From assembly GCA_965248435.1 (NCBI GenBank), contig OZ252100.1, forward strand, positions 3,648,001 to 3,712,000: a DNA stretch of 64,000 bases, written 5' to 3'. Source of the DNA: Candidatus Latescibacterota bacterium (GTDB lineage Bacteria > Latescibacterota > UBA2968 > GCA-2709665). Shown here piece by piece: positions 10,969-58,161 of the stretch (the first letter of the stretch is position 1; each line of letters starts with the position of its first letter). The position numbers and the translations under genes are program-made. The notes below the pieces were generated by a model. The model was not told the origin of the DNA. It ran no database searches and saw only the letters and a list, made by a program, of their open reading frames with translations.

Positions 10969-11007
10969 ACCTAACCCCCTAGCCCCCTTCCCTAAAGGGA
11001 AGGGGGA
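10969..11007 (+). repeat. C/G-rich hairpin repeat family A, copy 1 (possible terminator or RNA stabiliser)
   Basis: ACCTAACCCCCTAGCCCCCTTCCC-TAAA-GGGAAGGGGGA. Also at 46152 and, interrupted, at 47780. Confidence 0.8.
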
Positions 11008-46151: not shown

Positions 46152-46190
46152 ACCTAACCCCCCGACCCCCTTCCCTAAAGGGAAGGGGGA
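46152..46190 (+). repeat. Hairpin repeat family A, copy 2
   Basis: ACCTAACCCCCCGACCCCCTTCCC-TAAA-GGGAAGGGGGA, immediately after the stop codon. Confidence 0.8.
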
Positions 46191-46228: not shown

Positions 46229-47779
46229 ATGACTAAGCAACCGCGCTTTTTTTACAATAACGACGGCACCTTTCTGTTCCGTAATTCTCCCCCTCTGTCT
46301 TCCGAAGATTTCGTCTACGAGGCCGTAGGGCGTCTCATAGGCACCCAAGTGGATGCCGTTGTCTGCCATATGTTCGGGTACGGCCCTGCGACCCCGCTCT
46401 ACCCGACGGAGGTTCCAGAGGCCAGAGGGATTGATTGTGAGCAGGTTGACTTTGTCAGCGTATGGCGGCAGCAAGAGATTATGAAAGGGCTGTGGGCGAA
46501 AGGGCAAGATCCCTGGAAGCAGGCTGTGGAGGCTGCCCATTCCGCAGGCATGGAATACTGGGCTGGAATGCGATTCAACGACGTGCACGGAGAGCGTTTC
46601 GGATGGCCAAACGTGTTTTCTACGAACCATCCCGAGTATGAGCTCGGGGAGCGGCGCAGCTCACCCGAAGGTCGTCTAGGTAAAACCTATGAAGGTCTAG
46701 ACTTTGCGATTCCTGAGGTACGTGCTCACCGTGTGGCGCTGGCGGAAGAGGTCTGCGTGCGCTACGACGTGGACGGTTTTGAATGGGACTTTCTTCGAGA
46801 GCCCGGCCACCACTTTTCGGACATCGAAACCGGTCGTTCCATTCTTACCGATTACGTGCGCGAGGCGAGAAACGTGCTACAGCGGGCCGGCGAAAGTCGG
46901 GGCCGGCCGCTGGGATTCGGCATCAGAGTTCCTGGGACCTTGGAAAAGTGCCATCAAATCGGCCTGGAGGTGGAAACCTGGATTCGAGAAGGGTTGGTGG
47001 ATTTTGTCTCGCCCAGCCCCTACTGGGACACGGCCACCGAACTGCCCTTCGAATCCTTCCTGGATATGGCGGAGGGCACAGACTGCCGTGTCTACGCCTG
47101 TACTTCGGAGGGGGTAGGCCCTGGAAACCATTCGCTTCCGCCAGCATCGGCCTTGCGCGCGGGCATTGCCAATGCCTGGCGTCAGGGAGTGGACGGAATC
47201 TACGTTTTCAACTTTCATCACTATGCAAGGGAAAACATCGACGAATCCACCCTGCTGCATCAACTCGGGAGTGCCACGACTTTAGAATTTCAAGACAAGC
47301 TATTCGTGATATCTGGAGGCTATAGAAGGCAGGAAATGCCGGCTTTTGACGGGTTTGAGCATCAACTGCCGCTGTTACTGAAAGAGCAGCCTGCGGGTCC
47401 GGGGAATACCTTGCGTTTTTTGGTGAGCGACGACCTGGAGACCGGTGTTGAACGGGGCATCCTGGATGCGGTCACCCTGGAGTTGATCGTCGTGGGACTG
47501 ACGCCGGAGGACGTATTCGAAACCAAGCTAAACGGAAGGGCTCTGTCAGGGACCTCAAATTTAGAGCTTCTTCCCTACAGGGTATGGCCTGGTCCGAACG
47601 CAAATCAGGGCAACTACACCCGGCGATACGACCTGCGTTCTGGCGGTTGGATTAAGCAGGGATGGAACGAAGTGGAGTTTGCGCTTCGGCACCGAAACCC
47701 GAAACTTCGGACGTGTGATTTCGTCGTCCACGACCTGAGTCTGGAGATTAGGTATCGAACACTGCCGATGAGAGGGTAA
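46229..47779 (+). CDS. GHL10-like glycoside hydrolase, copy 3
   Basis: Tandem paralog ending YRTLPMRG. Confidence 0.7.
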   Translation: MTKQPRFFYNNDGTFLFRNSPPLSSEDFVYEAVGRLIGTQVDAVVCHMFGYGPATPLYPTEVPEARGIDCEQVDFVSVWRQQEIMKGLWAKGQDPWKQAVEAAHSAGMEYWAGMRFNDVHGERFGWPNVFSTNHPEYELGERRSSPEGRLGKTYEGLDFAIPEVRAHRVALAEEVCVRYDVDGFEWDFLREPGHHFSDIETGRSILTDYVREARNVLQRAGESRGRPLGFGIRVPGTLEKCHQIGLEVETWIREGLVDFVSPSPYWDTATELPFESFLDMAEGTDCRVYACTSEGVGPGNHSLPPASALRAGIANAWRQGVDGIYVFNFHHYARENIDESTLLHQLGSATTLEFQDKLFVISGGYRRQEMPAFDGFEHQLPLLLKEQPAGPGNTLRFLVSDDLETGVERGILDAVTLELIVVGLTPEDVFETKLNGRALSGTSNLELLPYRVWPGPNANQGNYTRRYDLRSGGWIKQGWNEVEFALRHRNPKLRTCDFVVHDLSLEIRYRTLPMRG

Positions 47780-47882
47780 ACCTAACCCCCCCGGCCCCCT
47801 CCCTCGGCTTACTCACCTCGATACGGCCCCGGTGGGCCTACTCGGTGCAGGCGGGACAGGCTTCCCTAAAGGGAAGGGGGGA
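47780..47882. repeat. Hairpin repeat family A copy 3, interrupted by two nested CCTG-foot mini-elements
   Basis: Deleting 47800-47860 restores the perfect hairpin CCCCCCTTCCC-TAAA-GGGAAGGGGGG. Confidence 0.75.
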
Positions 47883-47931
47883 ACGAGGTCGACGAACGCG
47901 AACCGAATCATAATATCCGAGGAGGGTGCTG

Positions 47932-50637
47932 GTGGCAGGTGTATGGGTCACGCGAGGATTTGAGGAATTCAGCAAGGGCCAGTGCGGAAATGCCGGCCAA
48001 AATCTGTATGTGTCGAGGGCGGGCATCCTGCAGCGCATCCACCAGTATGACTTCAACAAAGACGGATATGTGGACCTGGTTTTCTGTAACGCACAGGACC
48101 ATCAGGAACGGATCCCGGTCTATGTCTATCAGGATCCAGTAGGAAAATGCATACGGACCGACCTGCCTTCAGACGGGGCAGCGGGTGGCGTCGTTGCGGA
48201 TTTGAACGGCGATGGGTATGACGACCTCGTGCTGGGTATGAACTATGACGGGAGTAGCACGACGGATCTGAATGCGATCATCTACTCCGGTGGTGCCGAA
48301 GGATGGAGCGAGCGCCGGCTACGAAAGATCCCGGCGCCTTTTTGCACCGCTGTAGCCGTCGGTGATTTCAACGGCGACGGTCGGCCCGACCTGGCGTTTC
48401 TCTGCCACGGGAAGGTCCGGATTTTTTATCAGACCGAGCTGGGCTTCGAGTCTGCACGTTTTTCGGACCTGGAGATCGAAGGGACACAGCTCGGAGCAGA
48501 CGACCTGGACGGGGACGGCTTTGCCGAGCTGCTCATTCGTTCCAGGGAAGGGGACGTCAAAATCTATTGGGGCGGCCGGAACGGCATAGATGTGGAGGAG
48601 ATGACAAACGTTCCAGTCGAGGCTTCGCAGGCCGCAGGGCCAGAGGAGCCACTTTCCCCTGCTTTCGAGGAAGACGCCCGGGCCGCAGACGCAAAGCCAC
48701 TGGTGAAGGTCGTCCGACTGGATGGCGTCCCCTTTCTGTTTGTGGCTCGCGAAGAGGTGACATTACTGATACCGGTCGGGAGGGACCGGACCTTTGGAGC
48801 CGCGCTGGTGCTGAAGTGCGCTCAGGCCATGTCGATCGAAATCGGTGACGTGAATGGGGACGGACATTCCGATCTGGTCGTGGCCTGCCGTGAGCCCTGG
48901 GAGGAAGGCGAATGTTCCTGGGTCTACTGGGGGAACGAGGATGGATTCAGCGACGACCGTAGGACGCGCCTGGAGAGCTTGCGCGCGTGCGACGTGGCCG
49001 TCGGGGACCTGGATGGAGATGGCTGTGAGGAGGTGGTCCTCTGTCAGAACCAGACCCGGGAATCCTTCGCGAGCGAGTCACCGATCTACCGTGGATCTGG
49101 AGACCTCACTGTGACGGAAGTGGCTCGCCTGTCCAGCGAGGACGCCAGGCGGGTCTTTATCGCCCACCCGTCCCCCGATGCGACGCCTCATCTTGTTTTC
49201 GTGAACCATTACGGAGGAGGACGAAAGGGCAAGGTGAACGTCGGCATCTTTATGGGTGGAGCGGATGGGTTTTCGCCCGAGTTTCGTCAGGAGGTGCCTG
49301 GAAGGTGCGCCGTAGAGGCAATCTGTTGTGACTTCAACGATGACGGCTGGGTGGACCTTGCATTGGCCAACTGCTCGGAGATGTCACAGGATGAGGACCC
49401 GGGGTCGTCCATCTATCTGAATGGACCCGAGGGGCCCTCGAAAACCCCGAGTTGGTCGCTTGGGACGAAACGCGCCCACGGGGGCTGTTGCGCGGACCTG
49501 GATCGGGATGGGTACCTGGACCTGGTGTTCGGCGGGTTCAACAACTCCGAGATCTCCATCTTTAGGGGTTCTGCCAACGGGTTTGAACATCCCGAGCGCA
49601 TCCGACTGGAGCACGATGGGGTCGTTTATAACCATACACTCTGGCTCTACCTGGCGGATCTGAACAACGATGGCTGGCTCGATCTGGTGGTGCCTGAATA
49701 CGGGTTCGATCGAAGCTTCATCCTCTGGGGCGGCCCGAACGGGTTCAGCATGCGGAACGCACAGTCCCTTTCTGTCCTGAACGGCTCGTGTGTGCAGGCC
49801 GCGGACCTGACCGGCAACGGCACCCTGGACCTGATCATCGGAGGACACAAGGCTCCTCCAACCGGACCGCCGACCTCCTTTCTCCACATCTACTGGAACG
49901 GTCCGGAGGGCCTGCGCGAGGATAACCGGAGCCTGCTTCCGACGCAGGGGAGCCACGGCATGGCCGTGGCCGACTTTAACAACGACGGCCTCCTGGACAT
50001 CTTCGTCAGTTCCTACGACAACGGCAGGGGAAACCGGGACATCGATTCCTATATCTACTGGAACCGGCCCGATCGCGGATTTACCGCCGCAGACCGTACC
50101 CGATTGTTCACGAATTCGGCCGCGGGGTGTCTTGCCGCAGACTTCAACGAGGACGGCTGGATCGACCTGGCCGTCGCGAATCACAAGATCTACGGGCTCC
50201 ACGAGGGAAATTCGGCGGTCTGGTGGAACGGCCCCGATGGGTTCGACGAAAAGCATCAAACCCTCCTGCCCACGATGGGTCCACACGGCATGAGCACCGT
50301 GAATCCCGGGAATGTCGTGGATCGGGGACCGGAAGAGCACTACGTATCTCGCCCGTTCCAAATCCCTACGGGATCCAGGGTGCAGGATATTTCGTGGAAG
50401 GCTGAGATCCCTTCAAAGACCTGGGTGAAGGCACAGATTCGGTGTTCGGAGTGCGAAGAAGGATTGAATGAAGCAGACTGGTTCGGTCCAAACGGCCCGG
50501 AGAGCGGGTTCGAGAATCATCAAAAAATCCATAGTGATTCGTTCGACGGGGAGTGGATTCAGTATCGGCTGGCAATGGGTGCACGCAACAGCGGGAGTAC
50601 TCCGCGTGTCTCTGAGGTTGCCGTTCGGTATTCATAG
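47932..50637 (+). CDS. FG-GAP/VCBS repeat protein, copy 1
   Basis: Many DxNxDGxxDL Ca-binding repeats. GTG at 47932 matches the paralog start and the RBS spacing. No signal peptide. Confidence 0.85.
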   Translation: MAGVWVTRGFEEFSKGQCGNAGQNLYVSRAGILQRIHQYDFNKDGYVDLVFCNAQDHQERIPVYVYQDPVGKCIRTDLPSDGAAGGVVADLNGDGYDDLVLGMNYDGSSTTDLNAIIYSGGAEGWSERRLRKIPAPFCTAVAVGDFNGDGRPDLAFLCHGKVRIFYQTELGFESARFSDLEIEGTQLGADDLDGDGFAELLIRSREGDVKIYWGGRNGIDVEEMTNVPVEASQAAGPEEPLSPAFEEDARAADAKPLVKVVRLDGVPFLFVAREEVTLLIPVGRDRTFGAALVLKCAQAMSIEIGDVNGDGHSDLVVACREPWEEGECSWVYWGNEDGFSDDRRTRLESLRACDVAVGDLDGDGCEEVVLCQNQTRESFASESPIYRGSGDLTVTEVARLSSEDARRVFIAHPSPDATPHLVFVNHYGGGRKGKVNVGIFMGGADGFSPEFRQEVPGRCAVEAICCDFNDDGWVDLALANCSEMSQDEDPGSSIYLNGPEGPSKTPSWSLGTKRAHGGCCADLDRDGYLDLVFGGFNNSEISIFRGSANGFEHPERIRLEHDGVVYNHTLWLYLADLNNDGWLDLVVPEYGFDRSFILWGGPNGFSMRNAQSLSVLNGSCVQAADLTGNGTLDLIIGGHKAPPTGPPTSFLHIYWNGPEGLREDNRSLLPTQGSHGMAVADFNNDGLLDIFVSSYDNGRGNRDIDSYIYWNRPDRGFTAADRTRLFTNSAAGCLAADFNEDGWIDLAVANHKIYGLHEGNSAVWWNGPDGFDEKHQTLLPTMGPHGMSTVNPGNVVDRGPEEHYVSRPFQIPTGSRVQDISWKAEIPSKTWVKAQIRCSECEEGLNEADWFGPNGPESGFENHQKIHSDSFDGEWIQYRLAMGARNSGSTPRVSEVAVRYS

Positions 50638-56755: not shown

Positions 56756-56781
56756 AAATCCCCCCTGCCCCCCTTTACAAA
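56756..56781. repeat. Family B repeat, left part (ISL3 target hairpin)
   Basis: AAATCCCCCCTGCCCCCC-TTTACAAA. Continues as GGGGGG beyond the IS. Confidence 0.8.
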
Positions 56782-58103
56782 GGTTCATCACCGATTTCCG
56801 GGGAAGGCGTGGCGGATTCTAAGAAAGAAATAATTATCATCCCTGAAGCCATATGCCATCCGCTTGATGACCTTGATTTTGTTGTTAATTCCCTCAATCA
56901 GGCTTGTCCCGATGGGATAGTCACAGTGAGCTAGGATTCCTGGCATATACGTCTTCAGATTGCGTGCGAATTTCTTGAGTGGCTCGATCTTGCTGTAGAT
57001 GGCGCGTCGATACCACTGATTCCAGAATCTGTTGGCCGCAGCTCTGGATCGATAAGACCAGAGATGATTGAGATCCTCTTTGAGGAGGTATACCGTGTAG
57101 AGGCGTTTGTTTGCAGAAAGCAATTCTCTTAGCGACACTCTGTCTTCTTTGCTCGTGACATTTGCTTTGCTGCGCAGGAGCAACCACCGTTGGTTCTGAG
57201 TCACTTTGCGATCGGGTCGGCCACCGCGCACCCGACCCAGTTCGTCGATGCGTACTCGCTCGACGACGTCGCGGTTGTACTTGGCTTTAACGTGATACAG
57301 GTCATAGATGATGTCCACATCCGGACAATGGGATCGCACCTCCTCTTCGTAGGCACCGTTCATGTCCATCGCCACGGCCTCAAGTTGCTTGCAGCCTTCT
57401 TCTCCAAGGAGGTGGAAAAACGGGCGGATGTCCTCTCGACTTCGGCCGCGACCCACCCATAGGACACGCTTGGTCTCCATGTCAACAATCACTGTGGCGT
57501 AGCGATGGCCCTTTTGGATCGCAAATTCGTCCATGCCGATCACCGTGACCCTGGCAAAATCCGGCGGTTCCAGCTCTTGCTGGAGATGGGTCTTGTGAAT
57601 GCGCTTCACGGTATTCCAGCTCATCCCATAGTGCTGTGCCACGTGCTGGATGGGCAGGACTTCGCACAATCGAACAACACTTTCAGCCAGGCGTTGAGTG
57701 ACCCGTGAATACCGATCCAGCCAGTCAATCTGCTCCGTCCGGCAGCCACATCGGGGACATAGGACGCGCCGGGAGTGCACGATCAGCCTGGTTCGAGACC
57801 CCCAGATCGGCAAATCCTGAGCAAATCGCACTGCCCAATCATGAACCCGGTACGCCTTCTTCCCGCAACCACCACACCGAGGAAGGCGGCCTGTCTTGGG
57901 ACGTAACTCGACTCCAACAACGTCTGCTTCCTGACGTTGAATGCCAACTACCACAAACCCTTGCCACCTACCCAGTAAGGATATACTTTGCACCTGAGAC
58001 AACGCGCTCTCCTTTCTACCTTCAGGTTTATAGAGGATACTCTGAAGATAGGTCGGATGCCGTTGTCTCGTCTATTTTCTACCCCAACATTTGACGAAGA
58101 ACC
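56782..58103 (-). mobile_element. ISL3 family insertion sequence, 1322 bp
   Basis: Imperfect IRs GGTTCATCACCGATTTCCGGGGAAG and GGTTCTTCGTCAAATGTTGGGGTAG. 8-bp direct repeat TTTACAAA at 56774-56781 and 58104-58111. Confidence 0.93.
56788..58002 (-). CDS. ISL3 family transposase
   Basis: Zn finger CGGC...CPRC, GMDEFA..KGHRYAT, AMDM, DLYHV, EGINNKIKVIKRMAYGFR. TTG start. The stop codon lies in the IR. Confidence 0.96.
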   Translation of the reverse strand: MSQVQSISLLGRWQGFVVVGIQRQEADVVGVELRPKTGRLPRCGGCGKKAYRVHDWAVRFAQDLPIWGSRTRLIVHSRRVLCPRCGCRTEQIDWLDRYSRVTQRLAESVVRLCEVLPIQHVAQHYGMSWNTVKRIHKTHLQQELEPPDFARVTVIGMDEFAIQKGHRYATVIVDMETKRVLWVGRGRSREDIRPFFHLLGEEGCKQLEAVAMDMNGAYEEEVRSHCPDVDIIYDLYHVKAKYNRDVVERVRIDELGRVRGGRPDRKVTQNQRWLLLRSKANVTSKEDRVSLRELLSANKRLYTVYLLKEDLNHLWSYRSRAAANRFWNQWYRRAIYSKIEPLKKFARNLKTYMPGILAHCDYPIGTSLIEGINNKIKVIKRMAYGFRDDNYFFLRIRHAFPGNR

Positions 58104-58161
58104 TTTACAAAGGGGGGAGAGTGCTCTTGCTGAAAGAGTACCCATCAAGGAATGGATGCTT

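Follow-up and report, generated by a model that had tools for sequence, protein, structure and literature searches.

Three nested hairpin units in a Latescibacterota intergenic spacer and a candidate GIY-YIG nuclease partner

Three small palindromic elements lie one inside the other between two genes of an uncultured marine bacterium, Candidatus Latescibacterota, raising the question of whether each layer is a separate, precisely inserted unit and, if so, which enzyme moved it. The window that was analyzed is a stretch of 64,000 nucleotides (C1:3648001-3712000) of the source genome, G000, which comprises 5.67 Mb on two contigs with 56.6% G+C, an estimated completeness of 97.5%, and a contamination of 7%. 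The three-layer stack occupies a co-directional intergenic spacer about 146 to 159 nt long, and its parts are as follows (window coordinates).

46229..47779, plus strand: upstream gene, GHL10-like by a weak Pfam match, with its stop 1 nt ahead of the element
47780..47799, minus strand: distal part of the family A host hairpin, made up of GGGGG, the final 5 nt of the 3' arm, and a G-rich tail, CCGGGGGGGTTAGGT
47800..47813, minus strand: 3' part of the middle unit, AGTAAGC-CGA-GGGA, which joined with 47852-47860 makes a 23-nt unit
47814..47851 (C1:3695814-3695851), minus strand: inner unit of 38 nt, type T2, CCTG-CACC-GAGTA-GGCCCaccgGGGCC-GTAT-CGA-GGTG
47852..47860, minus strand: 5' part of the middle unit, with foot CCTG, stem TCCC, and the G of GAG
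47861..47881, minus strand: proximal part of the family A host, with the 5' arm CCCCCCTTCCC, the loop TTTA, and the initial 6 nt of the 3' arm (GGGAAG)
47926..50637, plus strand: downstream gene, FG-GAP repeat protein

Read layer by layer on the minus strand, the element is CCCCCCTTCCC-TTTA-GGGAAG / CCTGTCCCG / CCTGCACCGAGTAGGCCCACCGGGGCCGTATCGAGGTG / AGTAAGCCGAGGGA / GGGGGCCGGGGGGGTTAGGT. A finer parse resolves the first half into CCCCCCTTCCC-TTTA-GGGAAG / CCTG-TCCC-G / CCTG-CACC-GAGTAGGCCCaccgGGGCCGTAT-CGA-GGTG, the last block being the inner unit, and the second half into AGTAAGC-CGA-GGGA / GGGGG-CCGGGGGGGTTAGGT. The middle and inner units together form a 61-nt insert (47800-47860) that starts directly after the GGGAAG of the family A 3' arm; both inserts have one common orientation, and each is preceded by a G. 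A preliminary description of the locus had placed a 38-nt unit (47814-47851) inside a 23-nt unit of the same CCTG foot, stem, GAG, and CGA build, and the sequence is as it stated. Both units belong to a bracket superfamily defined by a short foot, a 4-bp stem, GAG...CGA with opposed G.A/A.G, and the complementary stem.

The host layer, family A, is a REP-like hairpin with a G-rich tail, about 45 nt in all. Deletion of 47800-47860 leaves a perfect family A hairpin with the junction GGGAAG/GGGGGCCGGGGGGGTTAGGT of the uninterrupted copies, so that the split by 61 nt given in the preliminary description is exact to the base and agrees with the empty paralogues. BLAST searches with the region, combined with a scan for the left arm, retrieved about 29 family A loci. 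The uninterrupted hairpin is present in 19 copies in the source genome, in 15 copies in one genome of another genus, and in a single copy each in two further relatives, with none in the other 27 relatives searched. Uninterrupted copies, such as those at C1:1466945 and C1:4116779, carry the same letters as the distal part of the stack (47780..47799). Two empty copies lie within the window, and both align to the stack with a single gap.

About 46157-46190, minus strand: empty family A copy in the preceding intergenic spacer, in the orientation of the stack
10984..11005, minus strand: second empty family A hairpin of the window

An alternative MAFFT alignment sets the gap 7 nt leftward, an ambiguity due to the likeness of AGGGA, at the 3' end of the unit, to AGGGAAG in the host arm; the boundaries of the preliminary description alone restore the host perfectly. 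Four further family A copies hold a 23-nt unit only, arranged as GGGAAG/unit/GGGGG (C1:2600763, 3811277, 826312, and 4157490), and one more retains a 14-nt remnant at the insertion point.

The stack is not an artefact of assembly, because two short-read contigs from the source sample, X1 (47712-48300) and X4 (47705-48300), agree with the stack region without a single difference. No filled/empty polymorphism at the locus was seen in the source-sample contigs, which hide rare variants, and the joints 47799/47861 and 47803/47851 derive from paralogous copies. A seawater relative of about 88% nucleotide identity, present in two metagenomes from separate studies, has the same two genes adjacent to each other, with 73 different letters where the stack-bearing spacer stands. 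With other letters in that place, the composite is not conserved at the orthologous site in this relative; its spacer was not recovered with 29-mers from the gene end in two metagenome scans. The orthologous site in a same-genus MAG (L006) proved uninformative, as a different gene lies downstream there. The protein of the neighboring gene is 86% identical to that of a Candidatus Latescibacterota bacterium MAG.

The inner unit recurs elsewhere in the source genome. The 37/38-nt unit has four near-identical further copies (2419582, 2369291, 3787993, and 3789811), all following TGTCCCG within a 31-nt unit that is itself lodged in family C, and this 31-nt unit also occurs without the inner unit (3514992, 3599041, and 4978041), so precise empty sites exist for the four sister copies. 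About five more copies are diverged or free-standing (4998874, 2610875, 2364875, 5003785, and 1096959), that at 4998874 being apparently free-standing. The 38-nt unit is almost restricted to this genome, where the pattern N4-GAGT[AG]...GTATCGA-N4' has 17 matches, all of the T2 family: 12 long hairpins and 5 of the short CACC form, the inner unit of the stack included. Middle-type (T3) units likewise occur without an inner unit, and the middle unit shares its build with 23-nt units such as CATGTCCCGAGCTTGCCGAGGGA, which possess precise empty sites. The exact 23-nt variant of the stack (loop GAGTAAGCCGA) and the 61-nt composite occur once in the genome, at this locus. The inner unit is thus found in other hosts and the middle type on its own, and the 61 nt are not one fixed block. 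The GC hairpin within the 38-nt unit was considered as a possible fourth layer and rejected, as there is no empty GAGT..GTATCGA bracket with paired flanks. Within the window, CCTGNNNNGAGTA matches once against 0.28 expected, a number unimpressive by chance, and it is the evidence at genome level that carries weight.

At genome level, 1,285 candidates of the form NNTG-N4-G[AC]G...CG[AC]-N4' were collected, and for each the two 13-nt flanks were joined and sought elsewhere in the genome with at most three mismatches. A precise empty paralogue was found for 36 of the 1,285, with 1 to 20 empty paralogues apiece, whereas 4 matches altogether were obtained with both boundaries displaced by 2 or 4 nt. 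The hosts represent at least 14 distinct contexts, among them families A, B, C1, C2, C reversed, D, and f, as well as REPs of the GGTAGGAGC type, other units, and short tandem repeats. A G directly precedes the unit in 35 of the 36 cases, mostly after purines (AAG, AGG, GAG, and ACG); positions -2 to -5 are purine-rich only, and the right flanks are diverse (GGGGG, TAGGCC, GACCGA, GCAGAC, ACGATC, ACGGCT, and others). When 15 representative empty paralogues were folded, the junction fell within the 3' arm of the predicted host hairpin in 11, the remainder lying in the 5' arm, at a loop edge, or in weak structure. Insertion is exact and strand-specific and leaves no target duplication. The preliminary description had proposed 23- to 38-nt mobile units that target hairpins, follow a G, and duplicate nothing, and these counts bear it out. 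An ISL3-type insertion sequence was also considered at the insertion site of the units and ruled out; it sits in a hairpin loop with an 8-bp duplication. The last six bases of the units (GAGGGA, GAAGGG, GAGGGG, and GAGGTG) resemble those of their targets (GGGAAG, GAAAAG, GGGAGG, and CTGGAG), a hint that one rule may cut both donor end and target.

The layers of the stack are very probably precisely inserted mobile modules. A contrary reading would have the units immobile, as modules of a conserved structured RNA or as binding sites for a protein, with the empty copies arising by secondary deletion. It would account for a 21-nt motif that is conserved across the phylum, the tolerance of G.T on one strand only, and the placement between co-directional genes. 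Nevertheless, no Rfam family reaches its gathering score anywhere in the window, units occupy at least 14 unrelated contexts and also one another, their boundaries lack direct repeats that could drive precise deletion, and the seawater relative carries other letters in place of the spacer. This contrary reading is very unlikely.

Another alternative dispenses with a dedicated enzyme: at stalled forks, template switching or gene conversion would spread units between repeats, guided by microhomology at hairpins. Most units do sit in multicopy host repeats that offer homology, the AAG/GGGGG junction is common to families A and C, and at the stack the unit 3' end AGGGA repeats an AGGGA of the host. 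However, the hosts number at least 14 and differ in their right flanks while the purine-G left flank is constant, a combination that fits one-sided target recognition and not two-sided homology. Furthermore, conservation of the motif across families of the phylum would need ongoing propagation or selection. Template switching as the sole source of the units is accordingly judged improbable.

The pairing of the bracket stems was assessed by comparison of copies. A search with the loop GAGCYTGYCGA alone gave 80 matches, 25 of which have flanks with four of four Watson-Crick pairs, against 0 of 69 for six permuted loops. The stems CCCT/AGGG and TCCC/GGGA are two compensating changes apart, and about 7 of the 12 cases with three of four pairs are family members with T.G on this strand, which is C.A on the opposite one. 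In the copy at C1:826335, the opposed GA/GA are replaced by GC/GC pairs. Shuffled sequences fold with energies as favorable as that of the 102-nt composite (z of -0.40 and +0.41 for the two strands), so the evidence for the stems is comparative and not energetic. On this comparative footing, the bracket stems are real and strand-specific.

Brackets extend well beyond the source genome. A scan of 168 genomes of the phylum found the 21-nt core TGYCCYGAGCYNGNCGARGGR in 40 of them, with a total of 2 matches over the same 168 genomes when the core is read backwards. By taxonomic family, it occurs in 19 of 21 genomes of f1, 6 of 31 of f2, 3 of 3 of f3, and 9 of 76 of f4. Among the 31 nearest relatives scanned, G007 carries 21 core units, G010 carries 18, and G004 carries 1.

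Which enzyme moves such units? The preliminary description favored a Y1/HUH transposase, RAYT or TnpA of the IS200/IS605 type, encoded elsewhere and acting on single-stranded hairpins. A foot with a hairpin, insertion 3' of a motif, lack of duplication, and strand specificity are hallmarks of IS200/IS605 elements and REPs, as set out in the accessible part of PMC3733652. The source genome has five PF01797 matches: two IS200-like, one RAYT-like with GGTAGGAGC REPs, one truncated RAYT-like (L004), and one more. Each of these genes is flanked by its own, differing hairpins, and those of the intact genes are unrelated to the units. Among 35 Y1 loci taken from five genomes, L004 alone has a unit with a foot within 1.5 kb, about 250 nt upstream. 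Brackets are not enriched at these 35 loci, with 7 in 26,600 bp near the genes against 22 in 80,500 bp farther away, nor is their density near the genes above that of the mirror control. In addition, no PF01797 match was found in the unit-rich genomes G007 and G010, while G004 shows the reverse, with 32 Y1 matches and a single unit. The search for motif-flanked RAYT or TnpA-Y1 genes that the preliminary description called for thus returned the one truncated gene, and a Y1 enzyme as the mover of the units is quite improbable.

The same description had also pointed to GIY-YIG genes flanked by the motifs, and here the outcome was positive. The source genome has two small genes of this kind, 7 kb apart, both encoding a GIY-YIG domain and each flanked by brackets.

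C1:344046-344261: GIY-YIG gene L063
C1:350741-351067: GIY-YIG gene L064, encoding a 109-residue protein that matches the UPF0213 structures 1zg2 and 1ywl

NCBIfam has no named family for either protein. On either side of L064, on opposite strands, lie hairpins of the form cgaatCCCC-GAGTG...TGTAT-CGA-GGGGtcgg, the downstream one itself nested; these are 2 of the 17 T2-pattern matches, and a third bracket is nested inside one of the two. Upstream of L063, T1 hairpins (tgtcaTTCC-GAG...CGA-GGAAtctc) form an inverted doublet, and their family numbers about 17 copies in the genome. The GAGT[AG]...GTATCGA signature of the stack's inner unit is common to the hairpins that flank L064/L082 in the source genome and L090 in the relative G081. 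In the last case, an L064-like gene is preceded, at a distance of about 170 nt, by gcctgCCCT-GAGTAG-GAGCgcaGCTC-CGTAT-CGA-AGGG, and this hairpin (GCCTG foot, GAGTAG, GC hairpin, CGTATCGA) has the build of the inner unit.

Relatives of the L064 protein are present in 55 of 132 genomes. Across 30 loci of small UPF0213-type GIY-YIG genes, the 22,480 bp that extend no farther than 350 nt from the gene hold 71 brackets (at 20 of these loci), and the 66,412 bp farther out hold 19, an enrichment of about 11-fold that is inflated because near windows are more intergenic than far ones, for which the Y1 control corrects partly. The mirror control at these loci gave 10 near and 32 far. No bracket lies near the gene at the other 10 loci, among which is a whole 9-member clade. 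In a tree of 32 nucleases, hairpin type follows clade: labels change 7 times, where shuffling gives a mean of 17.9 and none of 200 shuffles goes as low; the labels were assigned by eye and related genomes share them, so the pattern is one of clustering and not proof of coevolution. Type T2, together with one T4 and some hairpinless genes, groups with the L064-like clade, and T1 groups with the L063-like clade in four taxonomic families. Type T3, the kind of the middle unit, groups with clade II in three taxonomic families, and its GAGCYTGYCGA loop flanks clade II genes in G014, G017, G007, G021, and G117. Both unit types of the stack therefore match gene-flanking types, and the class is proposed here as UPF0213 GIY-YIG-associated bracket hairpins.

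Gene neighborhoods of this kind establish an association between nuclease and hairpin, not a mechanism. The source genome has no gene of clade II, although T3 units are its commonest type. Five other unit-bearing genomes (G010, G011, G015, G012, and G003, with 6 to 18 units each) gave no match to the L064 or the clade II query, and in G010, a single contig with 18 units, a search for the GIY-YIG family found a UvrC-sized match alone and no small gene. Because of these genomes, the nuclease link is offered as a hypothesis. Persistence of hairpins without the nuclease is not fatal to it, since REPs outlive RAYT genes: in the accessible part of PMC3733652, REPs are described as persisting where the RAYT gene is missing.

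Under a further alternative, the units are mobile and the GIY-YIG genes are not their engine; these would be selfish homing genes settled in hairpin-rich spots, with another enzyme or a host pathway acting on the units. Besides the hairpins in genomes where no small GIY-YIG match was found, the in-frame stop in 11 of the 62 GIY-YIG matches among those listed and the near-identical proteins across taxonomic families, typical of selfish genes, speak for this reading, and units enter so many kinds of hairpin that hairpin-flanked genes could be mere good targets. Yet within each nuclease clade the hairpin type is retained from one family to the next, which is hard to obtain by passive landing, and Y1 genes, likewise mobile and hairpin-flanked, attract no brackets. 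Such bystander genes are on balance unlikely, and a role of the GIY-YIG nuclease in moving the units, suggested by the gene neighborhoods, is given somewhat less than an even chance.

Nested mobile hairpins with a GIY-YIG nuclease as their likeliest partner make the best explanation of the locus as a whole, and one that we hold with about even confidence. By this account, a family A hairpin of about 45 nt would have received a 23-nt bracket, which would then have received a 38-nt bracket of a second type, all of these modules being tiny, nonautonomous, and hairpin-shaped. A single structure-specific enzyme would cut folded single-stranded DNA after purine-rich 3'-arm segments, in donor and target alike, and the segment between two such cuts would be copied into the target. 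By analogy with RAYT and REPs, the most likely partner would be one of the small GIY-YIG nucleases of UPF0213 type, whose genes lie amid hairpins built in the same way. GIY-YIG enzymes cut DNA, and we know of no joining activity among them, so the insertion step would need host repair or replication. The inner unit (T2) would have its cognate nuclease gene in the source genome, at C1:350741-351067, whereas the clade expected for the middle unit (T3) is missing there. The middle unit may thus be the older layer, which fits the absence of the T3 nuclease clade and the presence of the T2 clade, and may now be a relic or be moved by a noncognate nuclease. More tentatively, clade-specific UPF0213-type nucleases might each keep and spread their own 20- to 60-nt bracket family by cutting folded single-stranded DNA at purine-rich 3' arms, independently of Y1 enzymes and in parallel to the REP-RAYT system. 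The stack would then record two waves, the older from a nuclease clade since lost and the younger from the clade whose gene persists at C1:350741-351067.

Bacterial genomes commonly contain dispersed repeats of very small size. The closest counterparts are the SDR1-8 repeats of Nostocaceae (Elhai et al. 2008, Genome Res 18:1484), which are reportedly 21 to 27 nt long, some of them hairpin-forming, nesting by precise insertion, and without a known enzyme. The units of the stack resemble them in being dispersed, in their precise filled and empty sites, and in their nesting; they differ in their Latescibacterota host, in their size of 23 to 38 nt (the inner unit, at 37 to 38 nt, is the longer), in the GAG...CGA bracket, and in having a candidate nuclease partner. 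Because their host belongs to the Latescibacterota and not to the Nostocaceae, they are at most an analogue of SDRs. The SDR paper is cited in PMC3116915, and SDRs are also touched on in PMC5861425, as far as the accessible parts of these articles go.

Short, tagged, extragenic hairpins, palindromes of fitting size, and a partner nuclease gene flanked by its own hairpins recall the REP/REPIN-RAYT system. Inverted doublets occur for T1 and long T2 hairpins of the source genome (343803/343897, 687241/687327, 2259886/2259957, and 4143543/4143684), while the stack's own units are nested singletons of the same orientation. The tags differ from the GTAG or CGTC of REPs, being CCTG/CATG in the units, TGTCA in T1, and CGAAT in long T2; the associated gene encodes a GIY-YIG and not a Y1 protein; and the units insert inside hairpins and nest. 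None of the matches listed linked GIY-YIG, UPF0213, or YhbQ to REP-like repeats, RAYT, or REPIN. CGTC-tagged REPs and the Rickettsia palindromic elements are tagged palindromes for which no dedicated transposase is known, according to the accessible part of Di Nocera et al. 2013 (PMC3733652). The bracket units differ from them in tag and structure and in having a candidate enzyme family.

IS200/IS605 elements are alike in outline, in that the bracket units are hairpins on one strand that insert 3' of a short motif without duplication. The units, however, have one hairpin in place of two subterminal ones, a loose purine-G in place of a fixed tetra- or pentanucleotide target, and no association with Y1 genes. 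GIY-YIG homing endonucleases such as I-TevI and the Seg/Mob enzymes achieve exact, duplication-free insertion, and Slx1 is structure-specific. The genes flanked by brackets share the GIY-YIG domain with these enzymes, and insertion is exact and duplication-free in both; the moving piece here differs in being a hairpin of 23 to 60 nt that carries no gene.

To our knowledge, an engine has been identified for GTAG-type REPs only, namely RAYT, and for neither SDRs nor CGTC-type REPs; likewise, we know of no function assigned to the UPF0213 proteins (PDB 1zg2 and 1ywl). If the nuclease link is true, it would name an enzyme for a class of orphan repeats, give UPF0213/YhbQ-like proteins a role, and explain SDR-like tiny nested repeats. 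It would also define a compact system of a 109-residue protein and a 38-nt hairpin for structure-specific recognition of single-stranded DNA. Should the link fail, the stack would remain a thoroughly documented example of nested, SDR-like mobile hairpins from outside the cyanobacteria, and an unusually clean natural record of three layers, each with paralogous empty sites.

Orientation with respect to replication was also considered. By GC skew, replication of the source genome starts near 2.95 Mb and terminates near 0.2 Mb; the units show no clear pattern across the replichores, which leaves a lagging-strand rule unsupported, and T1 hairpins lie 13 times on the plus and 3 times on the minus strand, spanning both replichores. 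Nesting itself recurs in another genus, where G007 carries onion-like stacks, such as CCCTGAGCC[GYTG-TCCT-GAGCCTGC-CGA-AGGR]TTGTCGAAGGG, within a family-C-like hairpin.

The 159-nt spacer that carries the three nested hairpins (window 47779-47937) is replaced by 73 unrelated letters in a seawater population of approximately 88% nucleotide identity, detected in metagenomes of two studies (runs X5 and X7), and the genes that flank the spacer are still adjacent in this population. The nesting itself is a theme shared with another genus of the phylum: in genome G007 (loci L044-L062), CCCTGAGC...TCGAAGGG brackets are stacked onion-like, up to three or four deep, and the hairpin that hosts them, CTCCCCCCTTGAGGGGGAG, bears a TGGGGGGATT tail.

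The 4-nt foot of the bracket units is not invariant, because eight copies on the main contig of the source genome (C1:3777890-3991648 and others) present a TTTA foot in place of YYTG, in the form TTTA-TCCT-GAGCCTGC-CGA-AGGG. These units come after CGCGGAG, within another repeat family. The same contig contains roughly 17 hairpins of the form tgtcaTTCC-GAG..CGA-GGAAtctc, and these show a bias toward the plus strand, with 13 there against 3 on the minus strand, in both replichores.

The host hairpins are themselves repeats. Family D has a stem of 10 to 15 bp, CTTTTCTTGTG-GCGAG-ACAAGAAAAG, followed by TAGGCCGCCGGAGGC; approximately 28 uninterrupted copies are present on C1 (e.g., at 2779731 and 4972210), with two left-flank subtypes, and in 11 copies CATGCCCTGAGCYTGCCGAAGGG stands directly after AAAAG. 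Another host is a GGTAGGAGC-type REP at C1:2558100, whose loop is interrupted by a bracket unit of 33 nt and for which five empty paralogues exist. REPs of this type also lie on both sides of the RAYT-like Y1 gene at C1:3752748-3753285 (locus L003).

A family C hairpin in the window also holds a larger element, as follows:

Window 56780-58110, insertion sequence (IS)
Window 56788-58002, minus strand, transposase open reading frame of this IS, 404 residues

The IS, which is probably ISL3-like, has terminal inverted repeats of roughly 22 bp (GGTTCTTCGTCAAATGTTGGGG / GGTTCATCACCGATTTCCGGGG). It interrupts the hairpin at its loop, with an 8-bp duplication, TTTGTAAA, on both sides. Genome-wide, at least eight copies with the same end occur in similar hairpin loops.

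Near-identical small GIY-YIG proteins of the UPF0213 type (loci L082-L111) are found across taxonomic families, for example in G022, G086, and G025 of family f2 and in G136, G145, and G138 of family f4, and 11 of the 62 matches listed contain an in-frame stop; together, these two features suggest horizontal spread and decay of the genes.

Family A and family B hairpins on C1 are often about 70 nt apart, with a conserved spacer between them (…GGTCACAGTGAA…GAAGTTGATTTC…), as in these examples:

C1:2244094-2244260, family A/family B pair
C1:4982562, family A/family B pair
C1:3638685, family A/family B pair
C1:1466942, family A/family B pair

The composite of family A, spacer, and family B, approximately 170 nt long, looks like a MITE.
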